DNA of 64,000 nucleotides from Solirubrobacteraceae bacterium (lineage in GTDB: Bacteria > Actinomycetota > Thermoleophilia > Solirubrobacterales > Solirubrobacteraceae), in the NCBI GenBank assembly GCA_039744075.1, contig JBCJUC010000004.1:16629-80628 (forward strand), in the 5' to 3' direction. Shown here piece by piece: positions 4,798-32,401 of the stretch. Both the position numbers and the translations under genes were made by a program. The notes beneath the pieces are model-generated. The model was not told where the DNA came from and searched no databases. It saw nothing but the letters and a program-made list of their open reading frames with translations. Each line of letters begins with the position of its first letter. Position 1 is the stretch's first letter.

Positions 4798-6489
4798 TCA
4801 GAACACTGGTGATTCGGTGTAGCTACCAAACACGTCTTGTAAGGCTTGCACAATCTCCCCTTCGCTTGCGTAGGTTCGGGTGCAGTCGATCAGCAGCGGC
4901 ATCAAGTTTGCCCGCGGCTGCGCCGCAGCCGCGCGCAGCGCGGTCAGCGACGCCTCGACCGCTGCGCTGTCGCGGCGCGCACGAACTGCGCTGAGCCGGT
5001 CGATCTGCTCACGCTCGGTCGCCGGGTCGACGCGATGCAGCGGCGTTGGCTCGCCATCGCCCTCGGTGAAAGCATTAACGCCGACGACAACCCTGCGGCC
5101 GGAGTCAATCTCCTGCTGCAACTGGTAGCTGGCGTCAGCGATCTCACGCTGCGGATAGTTGGCCTTGACGGCGGCAACCATCCCGCCCAACTGATCGATC
5201 TTCTCAAAATAGGCGTAAGCCTCAGCCTCAATTCGGTCGGTCAGCGCCTCAACGAAGTAGGAACCGCCGAGCGGGTCAATTGTGCTGGCAACACCGGTCT
5301 CATGAGCAATAATCTGCTGCGTGCGCAAGGCCAGCCGTACGGCATCCTCGGTCGGCAGTGCCAGCGCCTCGTCGTAGCTATTGGTGTGCAGCGACTGAGT
5401 GCCACCAAGAACGCCGGCGAGCGCCTCAATCGCCGTTCGTACAACGTTATTCAGCGGCTGCTGCGCGGTTAGCGAAACACCAGCCGTCTGCGTGTGGAAG
5501 CGCATCAACCAACTCTTTGGATCCTTCGCGCCAAAGGTCTCCTTCAGCTCACGTGCCCAAATCCGCCGCGCCGCACGGTACTTCGCTATCTCCTCAAAGA
5601 AGTCAATCTGGGCATTGAAAAAGAACGACAGTCGCGGCGCAAAGTCATCAACGTCAAGACCGCGCTCAACCGCCTGCTCAACGTAAGTGAGGCCATCTTT
5701 CAGCGTGAAGGCCAGTTCCTGCGCAGCGGTCGAGCCAGCCTCACGAATGTGGTAGCCGCTGATCGACACTGGATGCCAACGCGGCATCTGCTGCGAGCAC
5801 CACTCAATCATGTCACCCATCACGCGCATCGCCGGATCAATTGGGAAACACCACTCCTTCTGCGCGATGTACTCCTTCAAAATGTCGGCCTGAATCGTCC
5901 CCGCCAACTGCTCCGGCGGCACACCCTGACGCTCAGCTGCAACAACGTAATAGGCCATCATCACGGCGGCCGGCGCGTTGATCGTCATCGAAACCGAAAC
6001 CTCACCAAGATCAATCCCGGCGTACAACACCTCCATATCCTCCAGCGTGTCAACAGCAACCCCCTCGCGGCCAACCTCGCCGACCGACAACGCACTGTCG
6101 GAATCGTGCCCCATCAGCGACGGCATATCGAACGCCGTCGAAAGGCCAGTCTGACCATGATCAAGCAGGTAGTGGAAGCGCTCATTAGTCTGCTGCGCAC
6201 TACCAAAGCCAGCAAACTGGCGCATCGTCCAAAGACGACCACGATACATCGATGGATAAACACCACGCGTGAACGGAAACTGACCAGGCAAACCAATCGC
6301 CTGCGCCGCGTCATCCGGCAGATCGGCCTCAGTGTAAAGCGGCTCAACCGGGCTGCCAGAGAGCGTCGTAAACGGCACATCGCGCTCAGGTGTCGCCTCA
6401 AACAACTCACGCCACTGCGCGCCCAAACTACGGGAATCCTGTACTGCTGAAGCTGAATTGTCGGTCATCAGATTGTCGGATCGTTTCAT
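4798..6489 (-). CDS. icmA: acyl-CoA mutase large (catalytic) subunit with isobutyryl-CoA mutase signature
   Basis: Methylmalonyl-CoA-mutase-family TIM-barrel sequence along the full length. WTMRQFAGF has Phe where MCM has Tyr, and KEYIAQKEW has Gln where MCM has Arg. Size of about 560 aa matches IcmA. Confidence 0.85.
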   Translation of the reverse strand: MKRSDNLMTDNSASAVQDSRSLGAQWRELFEATPERDVPFTTLSGSPVEPLYTEADLPDDAAQAIGLPGQFPFTRGVYPSMYRGRLWTMRQFAGFGSAQQTNERFHYLLDHGQTGLSTAFDMPSLMGHDSDSALSVGEVGREGVAVDTLEDMEVLYAGIDLGEVSVSMTINAPAAVMMAYYVVAAERQGVPPEQLAGTIQADILKEYIAQKEWCFPIDPAMRVMGDMIEWCSQQMPRWHPVSISGYHIREAGSTAAQELAFTLKDGLTYVEQAVERGLDVDDFAPRLSFFFNAQIDFFEEIAKYRAARRIWARELKETFGAKDPKSWLMRFHTQTAGVSLTAQQPLNNVVRTAIEALAGVLGGTQSLHTNSYDEALALPTEDAVRLALRTQQIIAHETGVASTIDPLGGSYFVEALTDRIEAEAYAYFEKIDQLGGMVAAVKANYPQREIADASYQLQQEIDSGRRVVVGVNAFTEGDGEPTPLHRVDPATEREQIDRLSAVRARRDSAAVEASLTALRAAAAQPRANLMPLLIDCTRTYASEGEIVQALQDVFGSYTESPVF

Positions 6490-6534
6490 ATTCGCTAGGG
6501 TTAGTCAAACAGCACGACGTTAAGGAGCTCCAAG

Positions 6535-7440
6535 ATGTCAGATCCCTACCTTCCCCGCTTGGTCGGCATCGTCGGTGGTGGCTTCATGGGTTCGGGAATC
6601 GCCGAATGCACGGCTCGGGCAGGTGTCCCGACGATCATATTTGAACCATCGGAACGGGCGTTGGAGGCGTCTCGCTCACGGATCGAGGCCTCGACCGCGC
6701 ACGCCACCCGGACAGCCAAGCTGACCGCCGAGGCCGCCGCCGAACTTCTCGACCTGATCGTTTACACAACGGAGCTTGACGAGCTGCGCGAGGTCGAGAT
6801 CGCAGTCGAAGCGGTAACGGAAGACGCCGCGCTGAAAACCCGCCTGTTCGCCGAGCTCGACCAGATCCTGCCGGAAGGATCACTGCTCGCATCAAACACG
6901 TCGTCGATTCCGATCGCCGAGCTGGCCGCCGCGACAGCCCGGCCCGACCGCGTCGTGGGAATGCACTTCTTCTCTCCGGTACCGGTGATGAAGCTGGTCG
7001 AGATTGTCGTCGGGCTCGATACCTCCGAGGCGACCGCTGACCGCGCCTGTGCTATCGCCCAGGCAATCGGCAAGCAACCGATCAAGACCAAGGACCGCTC
7101 CGGTTTCATCGTCAACACGCTGCTCGTGCCGTACCTGATGGCTGCCGTCCGGATGTACGAGGAAGGCTTCGCCGGCCGCGAAGAGATCGATCAGGGAATG
7201 CGGATCGGTTGCGGTCACCCAATGGGACCACTTGCGTTGAGCGACCTGATCGGGCTCGACGTGCTCTACGCGATATGCGACTCGCTCTACGAGGAATTCA
7301 AGCGGCCAGAGTACGCGCCGCCACCGTTGCTCAAGCGAATGGTTGCGTCCGGGCGCCTCGGCCGAAAAACAGGGCGTGGCTTCTTCGACTACGCAAACGC
7401 TGCTGATGCTGAGGTGGTCGCGGCACGACGATCGGGCTGA
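6535..7440 (+). CDS. hbd: 3-hydroxybutyryl-CoA / 3-hydroxyacyl-CoA dehydrogenase
   Basis: NAD fold VGIVGGGFMGSGIA. NTSSIPI...HFFSPVPVMKLVEIV and C-terminal GPLALSDLIGLD are all typical of Hbd/FadB. Confidence 0.9.
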   Translation: MSDPYLPRLVGIVGGGFMGSGIAECTARAGVPTIIFEPSERALEASRSRIEASTAHATRTAKLTAEAAAELLDLIVYTTELDELREVEIAVEAVTEDAALKTRLFAELDQILPEGSLLASNTSSIPIAELAAATARPDRVVGMHFFSPVPVMKLVEIVVGLDTSEATADRACAIAQAIGKQPIKTKDRSGFIVNTLLVPYLMAAVRMYEEGFAGREEIDQGMRIGCGHPMGPLALSDLIGLDVLYAICDSLYEEFKRPEYAPPPLLKRMVASGRLGRKTGRGFFDYANAADAEVVAARRSG

Positions 7441-7476
7441 TCGCGGCGGCCCCGATACTCAGGCCGTTGTCATCGC

Positions 7477-7983
7477 TCAGGCCAAGAAGTCGCCGGCATC
7501 GAGGCGTAGCGAGCGGAGCGTCGAAACCAGCTGCTCAAGCTGGCTGCTAGTGAGGCCACCGACGCCAAACAAAGCCGCGTTTAGAACCTCCGTCGCCTGC
7601 TTCGCAACCTTCACTCCGGCCGGCGTGATCTCGGCAAGAATCGTGCGCCGATCCTGCTCGTGCGGCAGCCTTAGGACAAGCCCGGCCTGCTCGAGCCGGT
7701 CAATTACATTGGTGACGCTGGCGCGGTGAACCTGAAGTCGCTCGCCGATCTTTCCAAGCGGCAGCGATCCTCGGCGAGCGAAGAACAGCAGCATCAGCGC
7801 CTCATAGCGGGGGAACGTTAAGTCAAAGCCGGTCAGCGCCTCGTTCAGTCGCGCCATCAGAATCTGCTCTGCTCGCATGATCGACGTGACCGCCGCCATC
7901 GCCAAAGTTGCGTCGGAACTGAAGTTCAGGTCCCACTGGCGGGCGGCTTCGGCGATCGGATCGAACGGCAGTGGCTCGGGCAC
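7477..7983 (-). CDS. MarR family transcriptional regulator
   Basis: Winged-helix core LTFPRYEALMLLFF...GKIGERLQVHRASVTNVIDRLEQAGLV.R. GTG start. Confidence 0.85.
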   Translation of the reverse strand: MPEPLPFDPIAEAARQWDLNFSSDATLAMAAVTSIMRAEQILMARLNEALTGFDLTFPRYEALMLLFFARRGSLPLGKIGERLQVHRASVTNVIDRLEQAGLVLRLPHEQDRRTILAEITPAGVKVAKQATEVLNAALFGVGGLTSSQLEQLVSTLRSLRLDAGDFLA

Positions 7984-7997
7984 TTCTCTTAGCCTCG

Positions 7998-8014
7998 CTT
8001 ATCCGGCGGATAAG
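7998..8014. promoter_or_regulatory. 17-bp palindrome CTTATCCG-G-CGGATAAG, candidate MarR operator
   Basis: Exact 8-bp arms around one central base, 15-31 nt upstream of the marR start. The loop is too small for an RNA hairpin, so a protein-binding site is more likely. Confidence 0.45.
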
Positions 8015-8086
8015 ATCGCCGCCAGCCTCCCGCCGCTGTCGGTTCTGCCTGTCTGCGACACCAGACCGCCGGTATAGGGTTCGCGT

Positions 8087-8245
8087 ATGACTGAGGAGCG
8101 GTTCCGGCTTCAGGCAAAGTTGCCTGGAGTGCCACTTGTCGTGAGCGCTTCGGCGTTCTCGCTGGCGATCCTGACAAAGACAACAGTCAACGTCGCTCTG
8201 CCCCAGATCGGGCGCGACCTTGGCAGCGGCGGCGAGCTGGCGTTT
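8087..8245 (+). pseudogene. N-terminal remnant of an MFS (EmrB/QacA, DHA2-type) efflux transporter
   Basis: Divergent from marR. Encodes LVVSASAFSLAILTKTTVNVALPQIGRDLGSGG, matching the DHA2 TM1 motif (LD.TIVNVALP.I..DLG). After about 50 codons the frame runs antisense into the ACAD gene and loses all transporter character. Confidence 0.4.
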
Positions 8246-9385
8246 TCAGCCATTTTGGGCGACCTCCCCGAGCAGGCCACGAGCGATCACGAGCCGCTGA
8301 ATCTCGCTTGTTCCTTCATAAATCTCAGTGATCTTGGCATCGCGGAAGTAGCGTTCGGCCGGAAAGTCCTTCGTGTAGCCGTAACCGCCGAGGATCTGGA
8401 TCGCCTCGCCCGTCCAGTGGCGCGCAACACGGCTGGCAAACAGCTTCGCCTGCGCGCCCTCGACCGTGTGCGCCGCGCCGGCGTCCTTCAGCCGCGCCGC
8501 GCGCAGCGTCAGCGCGCGAGCCGCCTCGATCTCGGTCTGCATGTCGGCGAGCTTCTGCTGAATCGCGCCAAAGCCGCCGATCGGCCGGCCGAAGGCCTCG
8601 CGCTCGCCCGCGTAGCCGACCGCCAGATCAAGCGCCGCCTGAGCGATTCCGGTTGCCTGAGCGGCGATCCCAATCCGGCCGCCGTCGAGTGTCGACAGCG
8701 CGATGCCCATTCCAGCGCCGGGCTCCCCCAGCCGCTCGACTTCGGCGTCATCGAAACGAATATCGGTGGTTGAGGATGAGTTCTGGCCGAGCTTTGCCGC
8801 CTCGCCCAGCAGCGCAATGCCCGGCGTACCGCGGCGGGCGATGAAGGCGCTAGGCCGCATCGCAGCGGCCGGATCTTTCGCAAAGACGATCACGGTGTGA
8901 GCGTGCGAGCCGTTCGTAACCCACTGCTTAGTGCCGCTCAGCAGCAGCCGCCCGCCGTCCTCACGCACGCTGCACAGCATCGCCGAGGCATCGCTGCCGG
9001 AGCCTGCCTCGGTCAGCGCGAAGGCCGCAAGCTCATGCCCCTGCGCGAGCGGCGGCACGAGCCGTTGGCGCTGCTCATCGCTGCCGTGGGCAAGGATCGC
9101 AACCGTGCCGGCGCCGGTGTGGACGGCGAGCGTCGTGCCAAGCCCGGCGTCGCCGCGTGAGATCTGCTCGATCACCAGTACGTAGGAGAGAAAGTCGGCG
9201 CCGCTGCCACCAAGCTCGGTCGGAACGCAGACGCCCAGCAGCCCCAGCTCACCCATCTCGGTCAGCGTTTGGCGGGGAAATTCGTGCTCGGCGTCCCAGC
9301 GCGCCGCCTGCGGCGCGACGCGCTCGTCGGCAAAGCGCCTTGCCAGCTCAGCTATCTGGCGCTGCTCATCGGTCAAAGCCTGCAA
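8246..9385 (-). CDS. acyl-CoA dehydrogenase
   Basis: ACAD motifs throughout: LTEAGSGSDA, WVTNG, GGYGYTKDFPAERYFRDAKITEIYEGTSEIQ. Start trimmed to TTG 9385, just after the HAD stop. The longest ORF reaches 9445. Confidence 0.85.
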   Translation of the reverse strand: MQALTDEQRQIAELARRFADERVAPQAARWDAEHEFPRQTLTEMGELGLLGVCVPTELGGSGADFLSYVLVIEQISRGDAGLGTTLAVHTGAGTVAILAHGSDEQRQRLVPPLAQGHELAAFALTEAGSGSDASAMLCSVREDGGRLLLSGTKQWVTNGSHAHTVIVFAKDPAAAMRPSAFIARRGTPGIALLGEAAKLGQNSSSTTDIRFDDAEVERLGEPGAGMGIALSTLDGGRIGIAAQATGIAQAALDLAVGYAGEREAFGRPIGGFGAIQQKLADMQTEIEAARALTLRAARLKDAGAAHTVEGAQAKLFASRVARHWTGEAIQILGGYGYTKDFPAERYFRDAKITEIYEGTSEIQRLVIARGLLGEVAQNG

Positions 9386-21538: not shown

Positions 21539-21970
21539 TCAGCGCGGCAGGCCGCAAACGTTCTTTGCCAACTCGCGCGTCAGCCGCGCCGCGGCGTAAA
21601 AGACCGGCGGCTGAGGCCGCGAGCTGTCACTGAAGCTGACCTGACCAAACTCAGTCTCAATCCGGTAGCGCAGGATCGTGTACTTGGCGGGTTTCAGATT
21701 GACCGCTTTGCGCGCTGGCCCGGGCTCCATGTCGTCGCCGTTAAGATCACCAGCGACGGCGCGCGCTTCGATCAGCTGGGCGTTACTGATCTCCCTTACC
21801 GGCCCACCGTTGCAGCGGACTGTGCCGCCATCACCAACGACCATCGTCAGTTTTGCGCCGGGCACCGAACCGCTGCGGTTGACGACAAACAGATCGGCCG
21901 ATGGGCCGCCGCAGCCAACCGCAAGCGCAGCGCCAGCAAGCAGCGCCGCGGTTCCAGCGCTGCGCGTCAT
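21539..21970 (-). CDS. lipoprotein of unknown function
   Basis: Signal peptide with lipobox LLAGAALAVGC. Its ATG overlaps the ggt stop (ATGA). Confidence 0.6.
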   Translation of the reverse strand: MTRSAGTAALLAGAALAVGCGGPSADLFVVNRSGSVPGAKLTMVVGDGGTVRCNGGPVREISNAQLIEARAVAGDLNGDDMEPGPARKAVNLKPAKYTILRYRIETEFGQVSFSDSSRPQPPVFYAAARLTRELAKNVCGLPR

Positions 21971-23454
21971 GCGGCGACCGCCGCGCCGCCGCGCCGCGGA
22001 TCACCGGCGCCGGCAAGTTCGCCGCTGGCAGGGTCACGGCTAACGGCTTGCGTTCCACCAAAGAAAAGGTTCTCAGAGCGGAACTGAACGAGCTCGCGGT
22101 CACCACGATCGAGCCGTTCCAGCCGCACACCAGGTTCAGCGAACAACGTGCCGCCCTCGCTGTGAAAGCGCGGCGCGTTGACGGCCGCTTGAAGGTCGGC
22201 GCCGTGATCGATCAGATTGACAATCACCTGCAGGATCGCCGACCGGATCCGGTTGGAGCCGGCGCTGCCGATCGCCAACTCAACCTCACCATCATTGCCC
22301 AGCACGACGGTCGGCGCCATCATCGACGGCATCCGCTGCCCGGGGGCGGCGCGGAAGAAGCCAAGCGGATTGAGGTCCTCCTCACCCATCATGTTGTTGA
22401 CCTGAATCCCGGTTCCCGGCACGACGATGCCGGAGCCTTCGCCGTTTGAGCAGGTAACCGAGCAGGCCCGCCCGGCGCTGTCGATCACGCTGATGTGAGT
22501 CGTCGAGCCAAGGTTGGCGGCAAGAAAGCGGCGCAGGAAGTCCGGGTCGATCAGCCCGGCCGTGAACTGCGGCGTGCGCAGCGCCTGAACCTGATCGATG
22601 ACAGCGAGCAGCTGCGCATCGCTCGGCGCGCCCTGCGGGCAGCTCTGCTCCAGCAGCGAAAAGGCCAGCACCAGCAGCGCGCCGCCGGCCGACGGCGGTG
22701 GATTGGTCAGCACGCTGCGACCGCGGTAACTGGCCTGCGCCGGTTCGCGCGCAATCACCTCGTAGGCCTCAAGGTCAGCCTGATCAAGCAGCCCTCCGAG
22801 CCGCTGTACCTCGTCAACCATCGCGGCGCCGATGTCGCCTTCGTAGAAGGGTGCTGCGCCGTCGACGCCGAGCCGCTCGATCGTCTCGGCAAGCTCGTCG
22901 CTGGCAAAGCTCTCGCCCAGCGCCAGCGAGCGGCCGTCGCGAGTGAACTCGGCCGCGGCGCCGGGCGTTGAAACGAGGATCCCGTTGAGGATTTTAAAGA
23001 CGTATGCCTGTGCTTCGTTGAGCGGCACACCGTCGCGCGCCAGCTGCGCTGCCGGCGCCGCCAGGTCGGCCAGCGGGATCGTCGACCAGCGCTCTGCCGC
23101 CGCGGCGATACCGGCAGGACTGCCGGGAACACCGCACGACGCGGCGCCGCAGTTGAAGGTCTGCTCGGCGTCGCCGAAGGAGACTTCAACGGGGAGCAGC
23201 GGCGCGTGCTGCTGATTGGCGCCGTGGCCAGGCGCGGCAACAAAGAAGTCGAGCAGCGTCGGCTGCTCGCCGGCTCCGGCGACGAGCATGTAGCCACCAG
23301 CGCCGGGCCCGGTCAGCAGTGGTTCACAGACCCATGAGGCGAGCACGGCGGCGATCGCCGCGTCAACCGCGTTGCCACCGGCGCGCAGCACGCCGGCGCC
23401 GACCTCGGCGGTTCGAGGGTGTCCTGCAGCAACGATGCCCGCGGCGCCGGTCAT
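21967..23454 (-). CDS. ggt: gamma-glutamyltransferase
   Basis: Autoprocessing and nucleophile region NLGSTTHISVIDSAG, and C-terminal GGTQAV...GAGDPRRGG. Confidence 0.88.
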   Translation of the reverse strand: MTGAAGIVAAGHPRTAEVGAGVLRAGGNAVDAAIAAVLASWVCEPLLTGPGAGGYMLVAGAGEQPTLLDFFVAAPGHGANQQHAPLLPVEVSFGDAEQTFNCGAASCGVPGSPAGIAAAAERWSTIPLADLAAPAAQLARDGVPLNEAQAYVFKILNGILVSTPGAAAEFTRDGRSLALGESFASDELAETIERLGVDGAAPFYEGDIGAAMVDEVQRLGGLLDQADLEAYEVIAREPAQASYRGRSVLTNPPPSAGGALLVLAFSLLEQSCPQGAPSDAQLLAVIDQVQALRTPQFTAGLIDPDFLRRFLAANLGSTTHISVIDSAGRACSVTCSNGEGSGIVVPGTGIQVNNMMGEEDLNPLGFFRAAPGQRMPSMMAPTVVLGNDGEVELAIGSAGSNRIRSAILQVIVNLIDHGADLQAAVNAPRFHSEGGTLFAEPGVRLERLDRGDRELVQFRSENLFFGGTQAVSRDPASGELAGAGDPRRGGAAVAA

Positions 23455-23508
23455 CGACCGTAAAGTAGTGGCGGCAGCGCCGAACTGCGCTGTGCCAAGC
23501 GAAGCGGG

Positions 23509-24921
23509 CTAGCCGCGCGGCAGGAACTCAGGCACATCGAGCGTGTCGATCCCGGTGCCGGTGCGGACCGTGTTCTTACCTAAGCGCGAACCACGTCCAC
23601 GCTCAACTTTTGGCTCACCGGCTGGCTCATCAACGCGCTGGCGGCGGCCACGGCGGCCTACTTCGTCATAGCGGGTTGCGACAACCGTCACCCAAACCTG
23701 ATCGTCGAGGGCGTCGTCAATCATCGCACCGAAGATGATCGTCGCCTCCGGATGAGCTGCCTCGGAGACTGCCTTGGCAGCCTCGTTGATCTCCCACAGC
23801 GACAGATCGCTGCCGCCGGTGATCGACAGCAAGATTGAACGGGCGCCGTTGATGTCGGTCTCCAGCAGCGGTGACGAAACAGCCTGCGCTGCGGCGTCAA
23901 GCGCGCGTGACTCGCCGGTCCCCATACCGATTCCAAGCAACGCCGAACCGGCGTCGGACATGATCGTCCGCACGTCGGCAAAGTCGAGGTTGATGATCCC
24001 CGGCAGCGTGACGAGGTCGGAGATTCCCTGGACACCTTGACGCAGCACGTCATCGGCGATCCGGAAGGCTTCGACCATCGAGGTGCGCTGGTCAAGCACC
24101 TCGAGCAGACGATTGTTGGGTACCACGATCAGCGTGTCGACCTCTTCGCGCAGGGCGTCGATGCCGAGCGATGCGGTTGACGCGCGGCGCGTCCCCTCAA
24201 AACCAAATGGGCGCGTGATAATGCCAACTGTAAGAGCGCCAACCTCACGCGCGATGCGGGCGACGATCGGCGCCGCACCGGTACCGGTGCCGCCGCCTGC
24301 GCCGGCCGCGACGAAGACCATGTCGGAGCCCTTCAGCAGATGCTTGATGCGGTCGTAGTCCTCCATCGCTGCAGCGCGACCAAGCTCCGGATCGGATCCT
24401 GCGCCGAGGCCGCGCGTCAGCGCCTCGCCGATGTGAACTGTCACGTCAGCCTGTGTCTGCTGGATCGATTGCACGTCAGTGTTGACGGCGATGAACTCGA
24501 CCCCAGCAATACCTGCTTCGATCATCCGGTCGACGGCATTCACTCCGGCTCCGCCGACGCCAACGACGCGCAGCACGGGGCCGCCCTTCTTGGCCTTCGA
24601 CGAGCGGTTGTCGACCGGGTCAGGAGCTGGCGGCATCAGCGGCGGCGCGAGCGGCGGCTCGTCGATCTGATTTTCCGGAATCTCTGAACTGAAGGCGCTG
24701 CGCAGCCGTTCCTGCGGCGACGGCGTGCTGCGTACCCCGGTCGCCGGCGTCTCCTGGCGGCCAGCCTGCGTCTGGGCTTCGCCGGGGCCGGCAGCTGGCG
24801 TTGCCGGCTCGACCGGCGGCTGCTTCTCGGCCTCCTCGGAGCCGGTCTTCGCGGTCCGGCGGAAAAGTTCTGAGAGCGGGCCCTCACGCATGCTGGCGCG
24901 GCTCTTCTTGTTCTTAGCCAT
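23509..24921 (-). CDS. ftsZ: cell division GTPase FtsZ with an N-terminal extension of about 115 aa
   Basis: Tubulin signature AGAGGGTGTGAAP, T7 loop NLDFADV, C-terminal peptide DTLDVPEFLPR. The ATG at 24921 has GGAGG 9 nt upstream. GC3 bias continues through the extension. The globular core starts at VLRVVGVGGAGVNAV. Confidence 0.9.
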   Translation of the reverse strand: MAKNKKSRASMREGPLSELFRRTAKTGSEEAEKQPPVEPATPAAGPGEAQTQAGRQETPATGVRSTPSPQERLRSAFSSEIPENQIDEPPLAPPLMPPAPDPVDNRSSKAKKGGPVLRVVGVGGAGVNAVDRMIEAGIAGVEFIAVNTDVQSIQQTQADVTVHIGEALTRGLGAGSDPELGRAAAMEDYDRIKHLLKGSDMVFVAAGAGGGTGTGAAPIVARIAREVGALTVGIITRPFGFEGTRRASTASLGIDALREEVDTLIVVPNNRLLEVLDQRTSMVEAFRIADDVLRQGVQGISDLVTLPGIINLDFADVRTIMSDAGSALLGIGMGTGESRALDAAAQAVSSPLLETDINGARSILLSITGGSDLSLWEINEAAKAVSEAAHPEATIIFGAMIDDALDDQVWVTVVATRYDEVGRRGRRQRVDEPAGEPKVERGRGSRLGKNTVRTGTGIDTLDVPEFLPRG

Positions 24922-25678
24922 GTGACAGCACCTCCTTCGCGAGGGCGCGGTAGGAGTCTGCAGCGCTGCCGTTGGGCTCGTACTTAAGCACCGACATCCC
25001 CTGAACGGGAGCTTCAGCGAAACGGATCGTCTTGCGGATCCGCGAGGCAAAGACGCGGTCGCCGAAGTTCTCTTCGAGGATCTCAATCGCCTCCTTGGCG
25101 TGAACCGTGCGCGTGTCCATCAGCGTCGGCAGGATCCCTTCGATCTCAATCTCGGGGTTGAGGTTTTCGCGAATCATCTGCAGCGTGTTCTGCAACTGGA
25201 TTAGGCCGCGCATTGATAGATATTCGCACTGCACGGGGACGATCACCTTGGTGGCTGCGGTCAGCGCGTTGATCGTCAGCAGGCCGAGGCTCGGCGGCGT
25301 GTCAATGCAGATAAAGTCGTAATCGTCGACGACCGCGGTCAGCGCCTTCTGCAACGAGCGTTCGCGGCCGATCTTCGTCGACATTGCGATCTCAGCGCCG
25401 GCCAGGTCGATTGAGGCCGGAGCGAGATCAATCTCACGCGTGACGATCACGTCGCGGATCGGCTTGTCGTGCACGAGCACGTCGTAGATCGAGTTTTCAA
25501 GCGTGTCGGGGTCGATCCCCTGAGACATCGTCAGGTTTCCCTGCGGATCCATGTCGATGCACAGCACGCGATGGCCGGACTCGGCTAGGGCGACGGCAAG
25601 GTTGAGCGTCGTCGTCGTTTTGGCGACGCCGCCCTTCTGGTTGGCGAATGCGATGATTCTGGGCTTTTTCTTATCCAC
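24914..25678 (-). CDS. parA: ParA/Soj-family partitioning ATPase
   Basis: Deviant Walker A IIAFANQKGGVAKTTTTLNLA, DYDFICIDTPPSLG, and C-terminal FAEAPVQGMSVLKYEP. Start set at GTG 25678 (VDKKKPRII); GTG 25717 is an alternative. The 409-aa longest ORF is rejected. Confidence 0.88.
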   Translation of the reverse strand: MDKKKPRIIAFANQKGGVAKTTTTLNLAVALAESGHRVLCIDMDPQGNLTMSQGIDPDTLENSIYDVLVHDKPIRDVIVTREIDLAPASIDLAGAEIAMSTKIGRERSLQKALTAVVDDYDFICIDTPPSLGLLTINALTAATKVIVPVQCEYLSMRGLIQLQNTLQMIRENLNPEIEIEGILPTLMDTRTVHAKEAIEILEENFGDRVFASRIRKTIRFAEAPVQGMSVLKYEPNGSAADSYRALAKEVLSHG

Positions 25679-25790
25679 GGGAGGGGCTCCGGTCGTCTGT
25701 TGGACCCGTACTCGCACTTTATTCGCAGTAGCGGCGCTGATTCCTTCCCGCCCGGCGCAGCAACTGCGCCGACCGTAGGCTGTTGAGTGC

Positions 25791-26915
25791 ATGGCAAGTT
25801 CGATTGAAACCCGCCTTGAAGGCCTCGCCGTAATCATCTGTGCCGGCTCCGGCGGCGTCGGCAAGACGACCGCCGCCGCCGCGATCGCAGCAGGACTGGC
25901 GGCCAGCGGCAGCCGTGTCGCCGTTGTCACGATCGACCCGGCTAAGCGGCTCGCCGACGCGCTGGGGCTGGAGCAACTCGAAAACCAGCCTGTGCTGGTT
26001 GACGGCGCACGCTTTGCGCCGGCCGGGCTTGAGATCAGCGGCGAGCTGTGGGCAATGACACTGAACTCAAAGCAAACCTTCGATGAACTGATTGACAGCC
26101 TTGCGCCGGACGCTGGCAGGCGCGACGAAATCCTCTCAAACAAGATCTACCAGCAGCTGTCAGGCGCAATCGCCGGATCGCAGGAGTTCACGGCCGTCGC
26201 CAAGCTTTACGAACTAAACCGCTCCGGCCGCTTTGACGTGATCGTGCTGGACACGCCGCCGTCGCGCAACGCGCTGGACTTCCTTGACGCGCCGGACCGG
26301 CTGACCGGCTTTTTCGATGGCCGCGCACTGAAGTTTCTGCTGGCGCCAACCGGCTTTGCGGCGCGCGCGCTGGGCGTTGGCACCGGCGCGATCCTAAGCG
26401 TGATGAAGCGGATCACCGGCGTTGAGCTGCTGGAAGACCTTTCGGACTTCTTCCAGGCGCTGGGCGGCCTGATCGACGGCTTTCGCGAGCGCGCCGACGG
26501 CGTGCGCGAACTGCTCGCCGACGCGGCGACCGGATTCGTTGTGATCAGCTCACCGGCGCGGGAGTCCGGCGACGAAGCTGTCTTCTTCAGCGACAAGCTG
26601 CGCAGCTCCAACATGAAGCTGGCGGCGCTGGTTATCAACCGTGTCCACCTTGTAGCCAGCGGCGCGCTGCCGGCACCGACGCCGGCCGAGGCGGCAGCGC
26701 TGCTCGACGCGAAGTTGGGCGAACCGCTGGCGGCCCCGGTACTGGCCAGCTACCTCAGTGCACTGGCCGTCGCCCAGCGTAACGGGGCGGCGATCGCTCG
26801 CCTGGCCGAAGAGGTCGGAACAAGCGATCCGATCATCGTGCCGGAGCTGCCCGGCGATGTCAGCGACGTCGCCGGGCTGGTCGCGGTTCAGCGGGCGCTG
26901 TGGGGCCGCGGCTAA
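25791..26915 (+). CDS. ArsA/GET3-family (anion-transporting-ATPase-like) P-loop ATPase
   Basis: VIICAGSGGVGKTTAAAAIA, VTIDPAKRLADALGL, VIVLDTPPSRNALDFL. Confidence 0.85.
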   Translation: MASSIETRLEGLAVIICAGSGGVGKTTAAAAIAAGLAASGSRVAVVTIDPAKRLADALGLEQLENQPVLVDGARFAPAGLEISGELWAMTLNSKQTFDELIDSLAPDAGRRDEILSNKIYQQLSGAIAGSQEFTAVAKLYELNRSGRFDVIVLDTPPSRNALDFLDAPDRLTGFFDGRALKFLLAPTGFAARALGVGTGAILSVMKRITGVELLEDLSDFFQALGGLIDGFRERADGVRELLADAATGFVVISSPARESGDEAVFFSDKLRSSNMKLAALVINRVHLVASGALPAPTPAEAAALLDAKLGEPLAAPVLASYLSALAVAQRNGAAIARLAEEVGTSDPIIVPELPGDVSDVAGLVAVQRALWGRG

Positions 26916-28216
26916 AGCGGCGGCCGCAGCGACTCGTAGCGGTCGGTCGGATCGACCGGCGGCGCTTCGTCGGCCGGCGCTGCCTGAGGAGCTGCCTCGG
27001 CCAGGATCGAGTCGGCAAGTGCGACCAGGTCGCTGCTGAGATGGCCGCAGCAGGCGTCGCGCAGCAGCGCCCGCAGATAGCCCTCGAACTCGTAGACAGC
27101 GGGCGCCGTGCTGTCGCCGCCGGCCTCGCCAGCGATCAGCGCCTGCTCCAGCGCGGCGGTCCGGGCAAAACTCTCGGTCAGCGCTGCGCGGCGCTGCGGT
27201 TCGGCGCAGAGCGCCGCAAGGCGGCCCGCCAGCCGGCCCGATGTCGGCCCTTCTGGCTCCAGCAGCGCTCGCGCTGCCAGCAGCAGGTCGCTCAGCGCCT
27301 CGGAGGGCAGCGTGCGCTGGTGTGCGAGGTCAAAACGGCGCAGCGCCCAGGCCAGCTCGCCCGAACGCGGCTCGCGGCGACCGACGAGGCTGAGGAATGC
27401 GCGCAGCTCATCCTCCTGCGCAGGCTCAATCAGCACCAACGGCTGCGGCTCGGAAGACTCGGCGCTGATCGCAACCGCCTGCCACGGCCCGGCGCCAATC
27501 CACGACCAGCCGAGCGGCGCCAGCGAGACCGGTTCAGCGTGGTAGAGCCGCAGTCCGGCAACAAGCTTGCGTAGTGACGTGCGCGACGCTTGCAGCGGGC
27601 CCGTATCGCCCGGTACCGGCGCGCGGCGGACAATCACCAGCGTCTGCGGGCTGCCATCGAGCCGCGACCAGCGCGCCTCATCGGGCGCTTCATCGCTCTG
27701 TTCGCCGCGTACCAGCGTCATGCCGTCGCCAAGCTTGACCTCGTCGGAGGCCAGCTCAACGCCCAGCAACACAGCGACCACGCTGTGCTCAGCGCGCTCC
27801 TCGGCGACGCACTTCTCAAGCTCCTGGTAGGCGTTATCGAAGCAGCGCTCATCGAAGACAAAGTCGCTGGAGTCAACGAAGACTCGCGCCAGGAAGCAGT
27901 GCAGCGCCAGGTCGGCGCTCTGGCGGCCCGGGCCGGGCGGTCGGACCGACTGTGAGTCGAGGTAGTCGGCGAGGCTGCCGATCGCAACCAGCGCGTGGGC
28001 GGCCGGCAGATAGGTCGGTAGCTGCGACAGCACGCCGCTGCGTTCCGAGATGAAATCGGCCGTTAGCGGCCGGTAGCAGTAGAGCGGCGAGTCGCGGCGG
28101 CCGGACTCGACCACCTCGAACGGCAGTTCATGGCCTTCATGCGTGTCGCTCGCCAGCTGCCAGGCAGCCTCCTGCGTGAAGGCATGCAGCGCGGCGCGAA
28201 GTTGGCGCAATCCCAT
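26912..28216 (-). CDS. hypothetical protein, no domain recognised
   Basis: Long ORF with consistent GC3, no TM helix and no motif I recognise. Start trimmed to MGLRQLRAAL (ATG 28216) to leave a promoter gap before the divergent His-rich gene. The longest ORF reaches 28351. Confidence 0.6.
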   Translation of the reverse strand: MGLRQLRAALHAFTQEAAWQLASDTHEGHELPFEVVESGRRDSPLYCYRPLTADFISERSGVLSQLPTYLPAAHALVAIGSLADYLDSQSVRPPGPGRQSADLALHCFLARVFVDSSDFVFDERCFDNAYQELEKCVAEERAEHSVVAVLLGVELASDEVKLGDGMTLVRGEQSDEAPDEARWSRLDGSPQTLVIVRRAPVPGDTGPLQASRTSLRKLVAGLRLYHAEPVSLAPLGWSWIGAGPWQAVAISAESSEPQPLVLIEPAQEDELRAFLSLVGRREPRSGELAWALRRFDLAHQRTLPSEALSDLLLAARALLEPEGPTSGRLAGRLAALCAEPQRRAALTESFARTAALEQALIAGEAGGDSTAPAVYEFEGYLRALLRDACCGHLSSDLVALADSILAEAAPQAAPADEAPPVDPTDRYESLRPPL

Positions 28217-28281
28217 GACTCCCCGATTCGCCGCGAGCGCCGTCGATCCTGCCATCGAGGCCGCGCGGTAGCCTATTACCG

Positions 28282-28620
28282 ATGGCTGAGAAGCAGAAGA
28301 CGCACGAGCAGCATGACCACGTTCACGGGCCGGGCTGCGGCCATACGGCAATCGTCCACGACGGCCACATCGACTTCATCCACGGCGGTCACCTGCATCA
28401 GCCTCATGGCGATCACTGCGACGAGCACACGATCGCGGTCGATGATCAGCGCCCCGAGCGCTGCGACCATGGCCACGGCTGCTCGGAGCACGTCCACGGC
28501 CCCGGCTGCGGCCACGAGGCGCTGCCACACGGCGAGCACACCGATTATCTGGTTGAGGGTCGCCTGCACCACCCCCACGGGGAACACTGCGACGATCACG
28601 GCGCAGTCGAATTGGCCTGA
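28282..28620 (+). CDS. His/Cys-rich metal-binding protein with an internal duplication
   Basis: 25 His and 6 Cys in 112 aa. Two copies of HVHGPGCGH-x-H-x-LH.PHG.HCD.H. Ends 24 nt upstream of the Zur-like gene. Confidence 0.7.
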   Translation: MAEKQKTHEQHDHVHGPGCGHTAIVHDGHIDFIHGGHLHQPHGDHCDEHTIAVDDQRPERCDHGHGCSEHVHGPGCGHEALPHGEHTDYLVEGRLHHPHGEHCDDHGAVELA

Positions 28621-28644: not shown

Positions 28645-29100
28645 TTGGCGATGGCCAAGCAGATCAACAGCGACTCCGACTGGGCAGCAGCGACCGGCGA
28701 ACGGCTGGCGGCGGCTGGCTACCGTCGCGGCGGCGCGCGAGCGGCGGTGATTGAGCTGCTCGCTGAGCAGAGCTGCGCACTGAGCGCTTACGAGATCGAA
28801 GCGCAGTTGGTGGCGCGCAAGCGAGCCGTCGGCCGCGCCAGCATCTACCGCGTGCTTGACGAGCTGGAAGCACTCGGCGTCGTCAGCAAGGTTGAGCTTG
28901 GCCAAGGCCAGGCCCGTTACGAACCGGTGCGCCCCGAACACCACCATCACCACCTCGTCTGTGACAGTTGCGGCGCCGTAATTCCGTTCGACGACCGCCC
29001 GCTTGAACTGGCCGTAACAGCGATCTCTAAGCGCGTCGACTTTGCAGTGGAAGGCCACGAGATTGTGCTGCACGGCCTCTGCGCCAGCTGCCGCCCCTGA
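28645..29100 (+). CDS. zur: Fur-family metalloregulator, Zur-like
   Basis: Winged helix ASIYRVLDELEALGVV. Metal sites EHHHHHLVCDSCG and LHGLCASC. Adjacent to a Zn/Mn-type ABC importer. Confidence 0.85.
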   Translation: MAMAKQINSDSDWAAATGERLAAAGYRRGGARAAVIELLAEQSCALSAYEIEAQLVARKRAVGRASIYRVLDELEALGVVSKVELGQGQARYEPVRPEHHHHHLVCDSCGAVIPFDDRPLELAVTAISKRVDFAVEGHEIVLHGLCASCRP

Positions 29101-29932: not shown

Positions 29933-30704
29933 CGTGGTCGTGGTGATGTGGCGGCAGGATCGACAACGATTCGTCGCCCGGCAGTGCCACCAGAGCCGCC
30001 CCGTAGGTGCGTTCGATCACCTCACGCGTCAATACCTCGGACGGTCGTCCGAAGGCAATCTGCACGCGGTTGCAGCAGAGCACCAGGTCCCAGCTGCGGG
30101 CCTGTTCGATGTCGTGCGTCGCGATCAGCAGCCCGCGCCCTTCAGCGGCGAGCTCGTCGAACAGCACGGTCAGCAGCTCGGCGCTTGGCGCGTCGATCCC
30201 TGCGAAGGGTTCATCGAGCAGCAGTAGCGGCGAGTCCTGCACCAGCGCTCGCGCAACCAGCACCCGCTGGCGCTGACCGCCTGACAGCTCGCCGAAGGTC
30301 ATCCCGGCCATCTCTGCCATGCCGACGCGGCGCAGCGACTCCAGCGCCAGTCGGCGGTCAGCGCGTGATGGGCGACGCCACCAAGCGAGCCGCGAGACCG
30401 ACCCCATCAGCGCTACATCGAGCGCGCTGACCGGATAATCGAGGCGCGAGCGCTCACCCTGGGGCACCAGCGCCGGGCGGCCGGCGAAGAGCTCAATCTC
30501 GCCTGATGACGGGGCAAGCTCGCCGGTCATCACGCGCATCAGCGTCGACTTACCGCCGCCGTTTGGACCGAGCAGCGCGACGCGGTCGCCGCGCTTGATC
30601 TCGCAGGTGATACTGCTGATCGATGGTGCCGCTGCGCCCGGGTAGCGCGCCGCCAACCGGTCGCAGACGACCAGCGGCTGATCGCTTAGCGGCTGATCAG
30701 GCAT
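29919..30704 (-). CDS. metal ABC transporter ATP-binding protein
   Basis: Walker A LLGPNGGGKSTL, signature LSGGQRQRVLVARAL, Walker B LLLLDEP. Confidence 0.9.
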   Translation of the reverse strand: MPDQPLSDQPLVVCDRLAARYPGAAAPSISSITCEIKRGDRVALLGPNGGGKSTLMRVMTGELAPSSGEIELFAGRPALVPQGERSRLDYPVSALDVALMGSVSRLAWWRRPSRADRRLALESLRRVGMAEMAGMTFGELSGGQRQRVLVARALVQDSPLLLLDEPFAGIDAPSAELLTVLFDELAAEGRGLLIATHDIEQARSWDLVLCCNRVQIAFGRPSEVLTREVIERTYGAALVALPGDESLSILPPHHHDHGEQR

Positions 30705-32401
30705 CGCACTCTCCCGCCCGAGATACCGCCGACGATTGCCTGCGTGTTGGCCAGCGCAGCGCCGATCAGCGTGCCGGCGGCGGCGGTGCGCGGGCCGAGC
30801 GTGTCGCCGTATAGCTGATAGTTCGATGATGCGCCGGTGTCGCTGGCGATCCGGTCGGCAAGCGCCCGGTTAAGCGAACTCTCGGGGAAGATCGCCACAA
30901 CCTTCAGCGCCTTGATTTTCGCCTCCAGCGCCGCAACCTCACCGGCCGATGCCTGGGACTGGGTCGAGGTCGAAGGGAAGATGGCGCCGACCGACCGCAA
31001 GCCGTAGCGGCTCGTGTAGTAGACGAAGGCGTCGTGGTCGGTGACGATCAGCCGTCGGCTCGGCGCAATGCGGTTGATGCAGGCACTGATTGCCCTGTCG
31101 GCACTGCGCAGCTTCGCCCGGTAGGCGCGAGCGTTGGCGATGATCAGCTCGCGCGCCTTTGGGTCAGCGGCGATCAACGCGCGCTCAATCTGCGTTGTTG
31201 CCGCCGCAACGTTTGCCAGGTCCTGCCACCAGTGCGGGTCGGTGGCGCCGCCAGCTAAATGCCGTTTGACAGGGACGCCGCCGCCAACGTCGATCACGCG
31301 TGCGCCGGAACCGGACTGCTCAACCAGTTTGGCGGACCACCGGTCGAGCCCCAGCCCGCTGGTGAACAGCAGCTTTGCGTCGGCGACCGAGGCGACGTCG
31401 GCCGGCCGCGGCTCATAGTCGTGGGCCTCCGAGTTGGGCGTCAGAATCTGCTCCACGCTGACGGCGCTACCGCCGACCTGACGGACGATGTCGCCAAGCT
31501 GCGTCGTCGTTGCAGCAACCGTCAGTTTCTGCGTATCGTTCGGCCCGCCACCGGCGCAACCGGTCAACATCAGCCCGCTCGCGACGGCAGCGCAGAGCGC
31601 CGCCGGGGCGAGCCACGGCCGCCGCGCGCGCAGCGCAGTTGCCACGGCGACAAGGGCGAAAACAAGTCCGGAGAGGACAGCAATCGCAGCTCCCGGCGGC
31701 AGATTGAGCTGGAAGGCAAGGACCATGCCGGCGACGCCCTCTGCCGCCGCCAGCGCTGCCGTCGCGAGCTGCCACCTGATCAGGCGGCCGGTTAGCAGTC
31801 GCATCGTCGCCGCCGGTACAACAAGGATCGCCGTCGCCAGTAGCGCGCCGACTGCGGCGAGCGCGGCAACGGCGGCCAGCGCGATCAGGCCAATCAGCAG
31901 CGCGTCGCCGCGACCACCGCGGTTCCTGAAGCCGCTGGCCAACCAGCGCGGGCCGGCAAGCAGCGTCGCCGCCAGTGCCAGCGCCGCGGTCAGCGCCGCC
32001 AGTGCCAGTTCGGGCGGTCCGATCGCCAGCAGACTTCCAAACAGCAAGCGGTCAACGCTGCCTTGCGAGCCGAAGACGTCGCTAGCGAGGATCACGCCAA
32101 GCGCCAGTGCACCAGCCAACACGATTGCCGTCGCGCTGTCGCCGCCGACCGAGCGTCGGCGCACCAGCAGCGTTATCAGCGCAGCCATCAGCAGTGCCGC
32201 GCTGAATGCGCCGAGCAGGGGCGCGAAGCCAAGCCCGTCCGCCAGTACAAGCCCCGGCACGGCGGCGCTGCCTACGGCGTGGGTATAGAAGGCCATGCCG
32301 CGTAACACAATCCATACGCCGAGCGTCCCGGCAACCGAAGCGAGCAGCAGAACCTCAACGATCCCCCGCTGGAAGAACGGCAATGTGAAGCTGTCAAACA
32401 C
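30686..32401 (-). CDS. in-frame fusion of an ABC-3 permease (aa 1 to about 255) with a ZnuA/cluster A-I metal-binding lipoprotein (aa about 253 to 571)
   Basis: N-terminal half is permease-like (FFQRGIVEVLLLASVAGTLGVWIVL). C-terminal half is SBP-like (LTVAATTTQLGDIVRQVGG...NSEAHDYEPRP...DPHWW). No stop lies between them. A complete signal peptide plus lipobox (RARRPWLAPAALCAAVASGLMLTGC, Cys codon 31558-31556) sits at the junction. Confidence 0.75.
   Translation of the reverse strand: MFDSFTLPFFQRGIVEVLLLASVAGTLGVWIVLRGMAFYTHAVGSAAVPGLVLADGLGFAPLLGAFSAALLMAALITLLVRRRSVGGDSATAIVLAGALALGVILASDVFGSQGSVDRLLFGSLLAIGPPELALAALTAALALAATLLAGPRWLASGFRNRGGRGDALLIGLIALAAVAALAAVGALLATAILVVPAATMRLLTGRLIRWQLATAALAAAEGVAGMVLAFQLNLPPGAAIAVLSGLVFALVAVATALRARRPWLAPAALCAAVASGLMLTGCAGGGPNDTQKLTVAATTTQLGDIVRQVGGSAVSVEQILTPNSEAHDYEPRPADVASVADAKLLFTSGLGLDRWSAKLVEQSGSGARVIDVGGGVPVKRHLAGGATDPHWWQDLANVAAATTQIERALIAADPKARELIIANARAYRAKLRSADRAISACINRIAPSRRLIVTDHDAFVYYTSRYGLRSVGAIFPSTSTQSQASAGEVAALEAKIKALKVVAIFPESSLNRALADRIASDTGASSNYQLYGDTLGPRTAAAGTLIGAALANTQAIVGGISGGRVRCLISR

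Follow-up and report, generated by a model that had tools for sequence, protein, structure and literature searches.

In a 64-kb stretch of DNA from a Solirubrobacteraceae bacterium (64,000 nt of contig JBCJUC010000004.1, here called the window), the gene that follows a parA/soj-type ATPase gene is ftsZ and not parB, and the FtsZ it encodes has a long N-terminal extension. This raises the question of whether FtsZ itself is the partner of the ATPase. The gene arrangement and an invariant peptide at the FtsZ N-terminus suggest that the division ring is positioned through direct ParA-FtsZ contact. To our knowledge, Actinobacteria have neither Min nor Noc, and their choice of division site is a long-standing question.

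Both genes are on the minus strand. parA (positions 24914–25678) encodes a deviant Walker-A ATPase of 254 amino acids (aa), assigned by Pfam and by its relatives of solved structure. The original prediction identified this ATPase but began the gene at position 25717; GTG 25717 and GTG 25678 are both in frame, and the latter is the likelier start given a GGAG 8 nt upstream. ftsZ (positions 23509–24921) encodes 470 aa and ends at a TAG codon (23509–23511). The junction at positions 24914–24937 is of the translational-coupling type. The ftsZ Shine-Dalgarno sequence AAGGAGG (24937–24931) is located inside parA, 9 nt 5' of the ftsZ ATG (24921–24919), and the end of parA reads CAT GGC TAA, with the stop codon at 24916–24914. 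The 8-nt overlap, ATGGCTAA, is read directly on the minus strand, and both it and the GGAGG within parA are as first described. There is no promoter-like site at the junction, and the sole consensus match within positions 23300–26000 falls inside ftsZ.

The ftsZ product scores 407.5 bits against the TIGR00065 equivalog, which passes the NCBIfam cut-off of 295.2. It displays the Pfam domains Tubulin (PF00091, residues 118–276) and FtsZ_C (PF12327, residues 325–416), the motifs GGGTGTG and NLDFADV, and a C-terminal DVPEFLPR. This agrees with the original prediction of a canonical FtsZ core behind an extension of about 115 residues. The globular GTPase core, residues 115–420 (positions 23662–24579, minus strand), is delimited by Pfam and by AlphaFold2 predicted local distance difference test (pLDDT) values of 85–97, and its median identity between orthologues is 80.7%. 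The C-terminal linker, residues 421–461, has a median identity of 41.6% and together with the C-terminal peptide occupies positions 23515–23661 on the minus strand. The C-terminal peptide itself (residues 462–469, positions 23515–23538, minus strand) is conserved as D-V-P-E-F-x-P-R, with DVPEF(L/M)PR kept across 78 orthologues. No Pfam family covers residues 1–117.

The extension begins with a peptide of 23 residues, MAKNKKSRASMREGPLSELFRRT (positions 24853–24921, minus strand), with Lys or Arg at positions 3–8, 12, 21 and 22. Its conserved core is residues 8–23 (positions 24853–24900), RASMREGPLxxLFRxT, where column identity is at least 95% in 78 full-length orthologues, a level like that of the GTPase core. 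M11, R12, G14, P15, L16, L19, F20 and T23 remain invariant when Gaiellales-type sequences are added, and the general form of the motif is [KR]-R-A-[ST]-M-R-E-G-P-L-x-x-L-F-[RK]-x-T. The invariant residues are each encoded by three to six synonymous codons (R12 uses six, L16 five and G14 four). This combination of amino acid invariance and free synonymous change implies that the peptide is translated and under strong purifying selection. It effectively excludes an annotation artefact, i.e., that translation starts near the globular domain, an explanation left with next to no probability, since invariance with synonymous change at residues 8–23 is explicable only by selection at the protein level. 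Some database gene calls do begin internally (P0035, P0038, P0257 and P0262), but the contigs behind them are truncated or frameshifted. ATG 24921 has a strong Shine-Dalgarno sequence ahead of it, and the extension sequences inspected show no conserved internal start near the core. The peptide is at the N-terminus in 80 of 81 sequences, the exception being a contig-truncated copy; internal initiation in orthologues, which would have spoken against the original prediction, is therefore not observed.

The peptide is followed by an acidic, Pro/Ala-rich segment, residues 24–65 (positions 24727–24852, minus strand), with a median identity of 19% and pLDDT values below 50. Across lineages the N-terminal extension ranges from 58 to 174 residues. 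With such low identity and variable length, the segment after the peptide behaves as a flexible tether. Conservation of the extension, on which the original prediction depends, thus holds for the peptide, whereas the linker varies in the manner of a tether. A second motif, residues 66–84 (TPSPQERLRSAFSSEIPEN; positions 24670–24726, minus strand), is specific to Solirubrobacterales and has the consensus (V/T)PTPQERLR(S/H)AFSS(E/D)IPEN, in which all of 16 diverse sequences share P69, R72, L73, A76, F77 and S78. Motif 2 is absent in Gaiellales-type and other divergent lineages, and Gaiellaceae carry a different internal motif. An AlphaFold2 model of FtsZ based on a 58-sequence alignment shows a disordered extension save for two short helices, at residues 15–20 and 69–77, neither of which is docked on the core.

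Other tether motifs are lineage-specific. YPHPSLGA is present in many Solirubrobacteraceae, though not in the window, and TVEHVPDFA in Gaiellaceae; these motifs were observed in loci L015–L075 and in proteins P0392, P0417 and P0447. Such additional motifs suggest, as far as their sequences indicate, further docking sites that would differ by lineage. In the lineage of P0252 and P0503 (loci L081 and L089), the N-terminal extension is only about 60 aa, and about 130 residues are found beyond EIPSF, which resembles the C-terminal peptide. Two database proteins, P0241 (840 aa) and P0245 (826 aa), are tandem FtsZ-FtsZ fusions with two complete GTPase cores each.

Scanning a single genome from each species reveals 80 related loci, 77 of which include upstream DNA. 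Almost all record titles read Solirubrobacteraceae or Solirubrobacterales, and the set extends to the cultured strain Solirubrobacter soli DSM 22325. parA is directly upstream of ftsZ in 77/77, and in 75 of these the two genes overlap by 4–28 nt where parA stops and ftsZ starts (14 nt in 47 loci, 8 nt in 23). More divergent peptide-bearing FtsZs emerge from 1.84 billion representative proteins searched, with parA directly upstream in all six contexts read. Of the six, one is a frameshifted contig where only a ParA fragment is left; in the five intact loci the overlap is 4–29 nt. Where measured, the divergent proteins are 60–73% (ParA) and 51–54% (FtsZ) identical to those of the window. The gene after parA is ftsZ in all 83 loci examined. 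An adjacency unique to this genome would have counted against the original prediction; with its overlap kept and the peptide essentially invariant, the arrangement goes far beyond chance. One divergent locus is from a Gaiellaceae genome (GCA_036554865.1), and the arrangement consequently occurs in two or more orders of the Thermoleophilia class. With a Gaiellales-type profile, 118 of 118 matches carry M[RK]EGPLxxLF. In a neighbor-joining tree of FtsZ cores, a single branch separates all peptide-bearing sequences from the rest, in keeping with one origin; the two exceptions within the group are truncated gene calls. On this comparative evidence, parA and ftsZ constitute a conserved two-gene module of Thermoleophilia, with ftsZ outside the usual division and cell wall (dcw) cluster and predicted to be co-translated with parA.

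Three loci (L006, L007 and L014) are titled 'MAG: Bifidobacterium breve'. Their parA-ftsZ is 88% identical to the Solirubrobacterales pair, and the titles are evidently wrong.

A looser form of the peptide motif, G-x-L-[AS]-x-[LI]-[FLI]-[RKP]-[RKAP], is found in no other real open reading frame (ORF) in about 1.05 Mb of related loci; outside ftsZ it matches once, in the window, in a low-complexity frame that is spurious. Five short proteins encoded on long contigs and resembling stand-alone N-extension proteins (P0125, P0164, P0199, P0202 and P0130) proved to be frameshifted ftsZ fragments and were rejected. ParA-FtsZ fusions were considered as Rosetta-stone evidence and also rejected: the long FtsZs P0446, P0478 and P0472 are C-terminal read-through artefacts, and a Walker A motif is present in no protein of the representative FtsZ set (the P proteins). 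In the window and in every single locus read there is no second copy of FtsZ; this pertains to loci and not to whole genomes.

The same distribution bears on an explanation in which the peptide does not act through ParA, being a membrane anchor or a docking site for another division protein, and the soj gene merely shares the operon for co-expression. We consider this quite unlikely, as the peptide and an overlapping parA co-occur without exception even where the remaining neighbourhood has changed, and FtsZs that lack the peptide or have other extensions are not coupled to parA in such a manner. The closest extension-less FtsZ with readable context (59% identity) is in a canonical murB-ddl-ftsQ-ftsA-ftsZ cluster. 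P0342, with an unrelated basic N-terminal extension, is in a dcw cluster with no parA, and P0349, with another basic extension, has a ParA/CbiA-like gene just downstream. A membrane anchor does have precedents: Mycoplasma FtsZ has an N-terminal amphipathic anchor, and Noc, a relative of ParB, is reportedly anchored to the membrane by a short N-terminal amphipathic helix. The hydrophobic moment of the peptide is low, at 0.16–0.33, and there are invariant Glu, Gly and Pro residues within the motif, which argue against such an anchor; the calculation itself does not discriminate between membrane anchors and ParB peptides. The basic N-terminal segment described at the outset as amphipathic is so only to a weak degree.

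An unrelated lineage contains an FtsZ with a 188-aa N-terminal extension that starts MGKGRRRKRR (L091, positions 6001–8672). A ParA/CbiA-like gene is about 190 nt downstream of this ftsZ, and ftsA is 4 kb upstream. This locus may represent an independent case of FtsZ-ParA linkage.

The ParA protein of the window matches Pfam AAA_31 (211 bits) and CbiA, and has a partial match to MipZ (PF09140). The MipZ match, 50 bits at residues 8–157, covers only positions 2–137 of the 262-position profile and is not full-length. The score against the NCBIfam ParA_partition equivalog is 121 bits, below the cut-off of 180. The closest solved structures are an M. smegmatis ParA-like protein (4pfs, 213 bits) and the chromosomal ParA of M. 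xanthus (8ray, 211 bits); T. thermophilus Soj (1wcv) scores 179 bits. This resemblance to a standard Soj, with no unusual domain, is a point in favor of a peptide that is independent of ParA. On the other side, constraint is tighter on ParA than on the FtsZ core, with median identities of 85.6% and 80.7%, and ParA is the more conserved of the two in 59 of 74 genomes.

The functional residues of ParA are retained. The Walker A motif NQKGGVAKTT and D44 (aligned to D60 of M. xanthus ParA) are invariant in 76 orthologues. In M. xanthus ParA, the pocket for the ParB peptide consists of V116, L150, L152, L155, L187 and L192, and R238 binds DNA (PMC12462528). The equivalents of the pocket residues in the window ParA are I97, L131, L133, I136, M168 and L173. 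These positions are conserved among the 76 orthologues, which differ only at 97 and 136, by conservative I/M and I/V substitutions. R219, the equivalent of R238, is invariant in the same set, and five of the seven ParA positions checked, D44 included, are invariant throughout it.

Partners of ParA/MinD ATPases act via short, positively charged N-terminal peptides, and they are usually encoded beside their ATPase (PMC7993993, PMC10241942). FtsZ of the window displays both properties: a short, conserved, Lys/Arg-rich peptide at the extreme N-terminus followed by disorder, and a conserved linkage to the ATPase gene (77/77 and 6/6 loci). In pattern, the peptide also resembles the N-terminal motif of ParB. 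M11-R12-E-G-P-L16-x-x-L19-F20 has the L-x-x-L-[IF] spacing with a preceding basic residue, as in ParB L-G-[RK]-G-L-x-x-L-I, and the helix predicted by AlphaFold2 at residues 15–20 lies on the stretch that matches this spacing. The ParB N-termini used for comparison were verified against solved-structure sequences, i.e., those of T. thermophilus (MSRKPSGLGRGLEALLPKTG), H. pylori and C. crescentus (MSEGRRGLGRGLSALLGEVD).

Since FtsZ has, at the sequence level, both the peptide and the gene linkage of such a partner, and ParA keeps both the pocket and the DNA-binding arginine, the reading adopted here is that FtsZ is a direct partner or cargo of nucleoid-bound ParA. That the peptide is a ParA-binding handle is probable. 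That it serves positive Z-ring positioning in particular is a more tentative proposal, somewhat short of an even chance. The suggestion of the original prediction that FtsZ is the ParA partner is thereby supported at the level of sequence, and no computed check refutes it.

Several observations weigh against this reading. Smith-Waterman scores of the peptide against ParB N-termini are not above those of shuffled sequences or of 1239 background N-termini (p ~0.05–0.9), and a search with a 27-residue peptide of solved-structure sequences at E values up to 10 gives no match. Relative to ParB, the FtsZ peptide has an extra Pro, and its basic residue is one position out of place. With non-significant alignment scores the likeness to ParB is one of pattern, and homology is not claimed. 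The lack of statistical significance also favors a peptide unconnected with ParA. The gene linkage is compatible with co-regulation alone. The analysis reads loci and not whole genomes, and ParB, another ParA or another FtsZ may be encoded elsewhere. In two divergent lineages the equivalent of R238 is Lys and pocket position 168 is Gln, as is seen in loci L081 and L089. Clade-specific ParA residues, defined as invariant in Thermoleophilia ParA and different in the M. smegmatis, M. xanthus and T. thermophilus proteins, show weak enrichment around the pocket: the 37 residues there, of 254 in all, hold 9 of the 35 such positions.

These clade-specific residues cluster at ParA residues 98–100 and 164–172 (approximately positions 25162–25386), beside the predicted pocket residues 97, 168 and 173.

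From the arrangement and conservation we infer contact between ParA and FtsZ, stimulation of the ATPase and an outcome in the cell, which may be pictured as follows. ATP-bound ParA dimers would coat the nucleoid. The peptide on its flexible tether would supply the ATPase-activating handle that is otherwise given by ParB, MinE, PomX or McdB. FtsZ filaments would display many peptides on tethers of about 40–150 residues, and could bind avidly at the hydrophobic pocket of the ParA dimer interface. Binding of the peptide would trigger ATP hydrolysis and free ParA locally, and the resulting ParA depletion zone and flux would place FtsZ assembly relative to the nucleoid. The scheme would resemble PomXYZ, with its PomX filaments, or the partition complex, with its closed ParB clamps, FtsZ being its own adaptor. 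In its strongest form, FtsZ as cargo and activator and ParA on the nucleoid would constitute a minimal two-protein self-organizing system, with FtsZ moving on or clearing the nucleoid ParA, that replaces Min, Noc and adaptors; this is a conjecture that we hold a little more loosely than positive positioning itself.

The same comparative evidence fits a binding of the peptide to ParA whose effect is negative, differing from the reading adopted here in the sign of the effect. Nucleoid-bound ParA would capture or cap FtsZ and block the Z-ring over the chromosome. This may take the form of nucleoid occlusion, of a MipZ-like inhibitor, or of a timing device where ParB and FtsZ compete for one ParA. 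MipZ, a relative of ParA, inhibits FtsZ directly, and the window ParA has the 50-bit match to it; PldP alters division-site choice and interacts with ParB (PMC4255298). Set against these points, the MipZ match is partial and far weaker than the matches to Soj/ParA, and the sequences do not show which sign the effect has. A negative effect is judged unlikely, though less so than a peptide that is independent of ParA. Positive positioning through a ParA-binding peptide remains the reading preferred here.

The parA-ftsZ pair is set in ordinary chromosomal housekeeping DNA. The window includes genes for electron transfer flavoprotein (ETF), methylmalonyl-CoA mutase, the Suf cluster, phosphoglucose isomerase (PGI), transaldolase, a primary-type sigma factor and a Zur/Znu system. 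Among the 57 ORFs scanned against Pfam, comprising all large ORFs of the 64 kb, there are no fts, mur, min or parB domains other than those of the pair itself. tblastn with ParB queries gives no match in the window or in the 80 related loci, and a parB may lie elsewhere in the genome. The window also lacks any parS-like site. The Pfam scan and tblastn agree with the neighbourhood first reported, i.e., ggt and an ArsA-like ATPase gene, with no ftsQ, ftsA, mur genes or parB.

Downstream of ftsZ is ggt, which encodes a gamma-glutamyltranspeptidase (positions 21967–23454, minus strand; Pfam G_glu_transpept, 327 bits) and is possibly on the parA-ftsZ transcript. Of 80 loci, 73 have ggt on the downstream side of ftsZ, and in three divergent lineages it is directly downstream; in the Gaiellaceae genome it is about 1.7 kb downstream with two genes between. 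With ggt kept downstream of ftsZ from Solirubrobacterales to Gaiellales, the conserved unit may be parA-ftsZ-ggt. Upstream of parA, and divergent from it, is a gene for an ArsA/Get3-like (BagB-like) ATPase at positions 25791–26915 (plus strand). The intergenic region of 25679–25790, to which no strand is assigned, likely represents the promoter region of the parA-ftsZ operon, judging from its position; it has no consensus sigma-70 match.

The BagB-like ATPase scores 321 bits against NCBIfam BagB, below the cut-off of 521, and its gene is near parA in 62 of 80 loci. Adjoining it is a 479-aa ORF (positions 26912–28351, minus strand) with no Pfam or NCBIfam match, which is kept in 46 loci. A His-rich ORF of 112 aa (positions 28282–28620) adjoins a Fur/Zur regulator gene (positions 28645–29100) and a Znu-type ATP-binding cassette (ABC) system. 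Within the latter, a 571-aa ORF (positions 30686–32401) combines an ABC-3 permease with a ZnuA binding protein.

The ParA-family systems known to us that place the Z-ring (MinCDE, MipZ-ParB and PomXYZ) all employ intermediary proteins. If the reading is correct, an FtsZ that bears its own ParA handle would be the simplest such system known, and a natural experiment in the movement of ParA partner peptides between proteins. If ParB is also present, competition between FtsZ and ParB for the ParA pocket would couple segregation to the timing of division. The system is tractable, with a 16-residue peptide, predicted pocket residues and the cultured S. soli. Thermoleophilia are abundant in soils, and the arrangement therefore concerns a large share of environmental actinobacterial diversity.

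A comparison with known systems shows both likenesses and differences. Chromosomal ParABS (Soj/Spo0J) has the same type of ATPase, the ParB-peptide pocket, the DNA-binding arginine and a partner peptide at the extreme N-terminus. The ParB motif of ParABS is L-G-[RK]-G-L-x-A-L-[IL]. Here ftsZ, not parB, follows parA, and parS is missing from the window. MipZ-ParB of Caulobacter crescentus similarly ties a ParA-family ATPase to FtsZ, with MipZ acting directly on FtsZ so that the division site is set. However, MipZ binds at the FtsZ core and takes its pattern from ParB, and Caulobacter FtsZ has no N-terminal handle. PldP/ParA2 (the group of SCO1772, Rv1708 and Cg1610) is the ubiquitous second ParA of actinobacteria, which is found at septa and is tied to division-site selection (PMC4255298). 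ParA2/PldP may have its Thermoleophilia orthologue in the window ParA, but no coupling of PldP genes to ftsZ is described, nor is such a peptide on their FtsZs.

N-terminal extensions of FtsZ are themselves not without precedent, in Anabaena and elsewhere, though none of those described is linked to a ParA. In Anabaena and the heterocyst-forming cyanobacteria, FtsZ has a lineage-specific conserved N-terminal extension that is needed for normal function (PMC6175996). That extension is unrelated in sequence, has no reported linkage to ParA, and is proposed to have a role in polymerization (PMC6175996). The statement in the original prediction that no FtsZ of this architecture had been described is consequently too broad for N-terminal extensions in general; it stands for the ParA-linked peptide, as no description of a ParA-linked FtsZ with such an N-terminal peptide was found in the literature.

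The closest functional analogue is PomXYZ of Myxococcus xanthus, where the nucleoid-bound ParA-family protein PomZ, with its activators PomX and PomY, positions the Z-ring. Neither PomX nor PomY is encoded beside parA-ftsZ in any locus examined. The ATPase of the present pair resembles a plain Soj and not PomZ, and the lineage is Actinomycetota. In contrast to PomXYZ, a separate adaptor is not evident here because the peptide sits on FtsZ itself. The sequences point to what would be a positioning system of the ParA/MinD-partner type, in which the partner peptide is carried by FtsZ.

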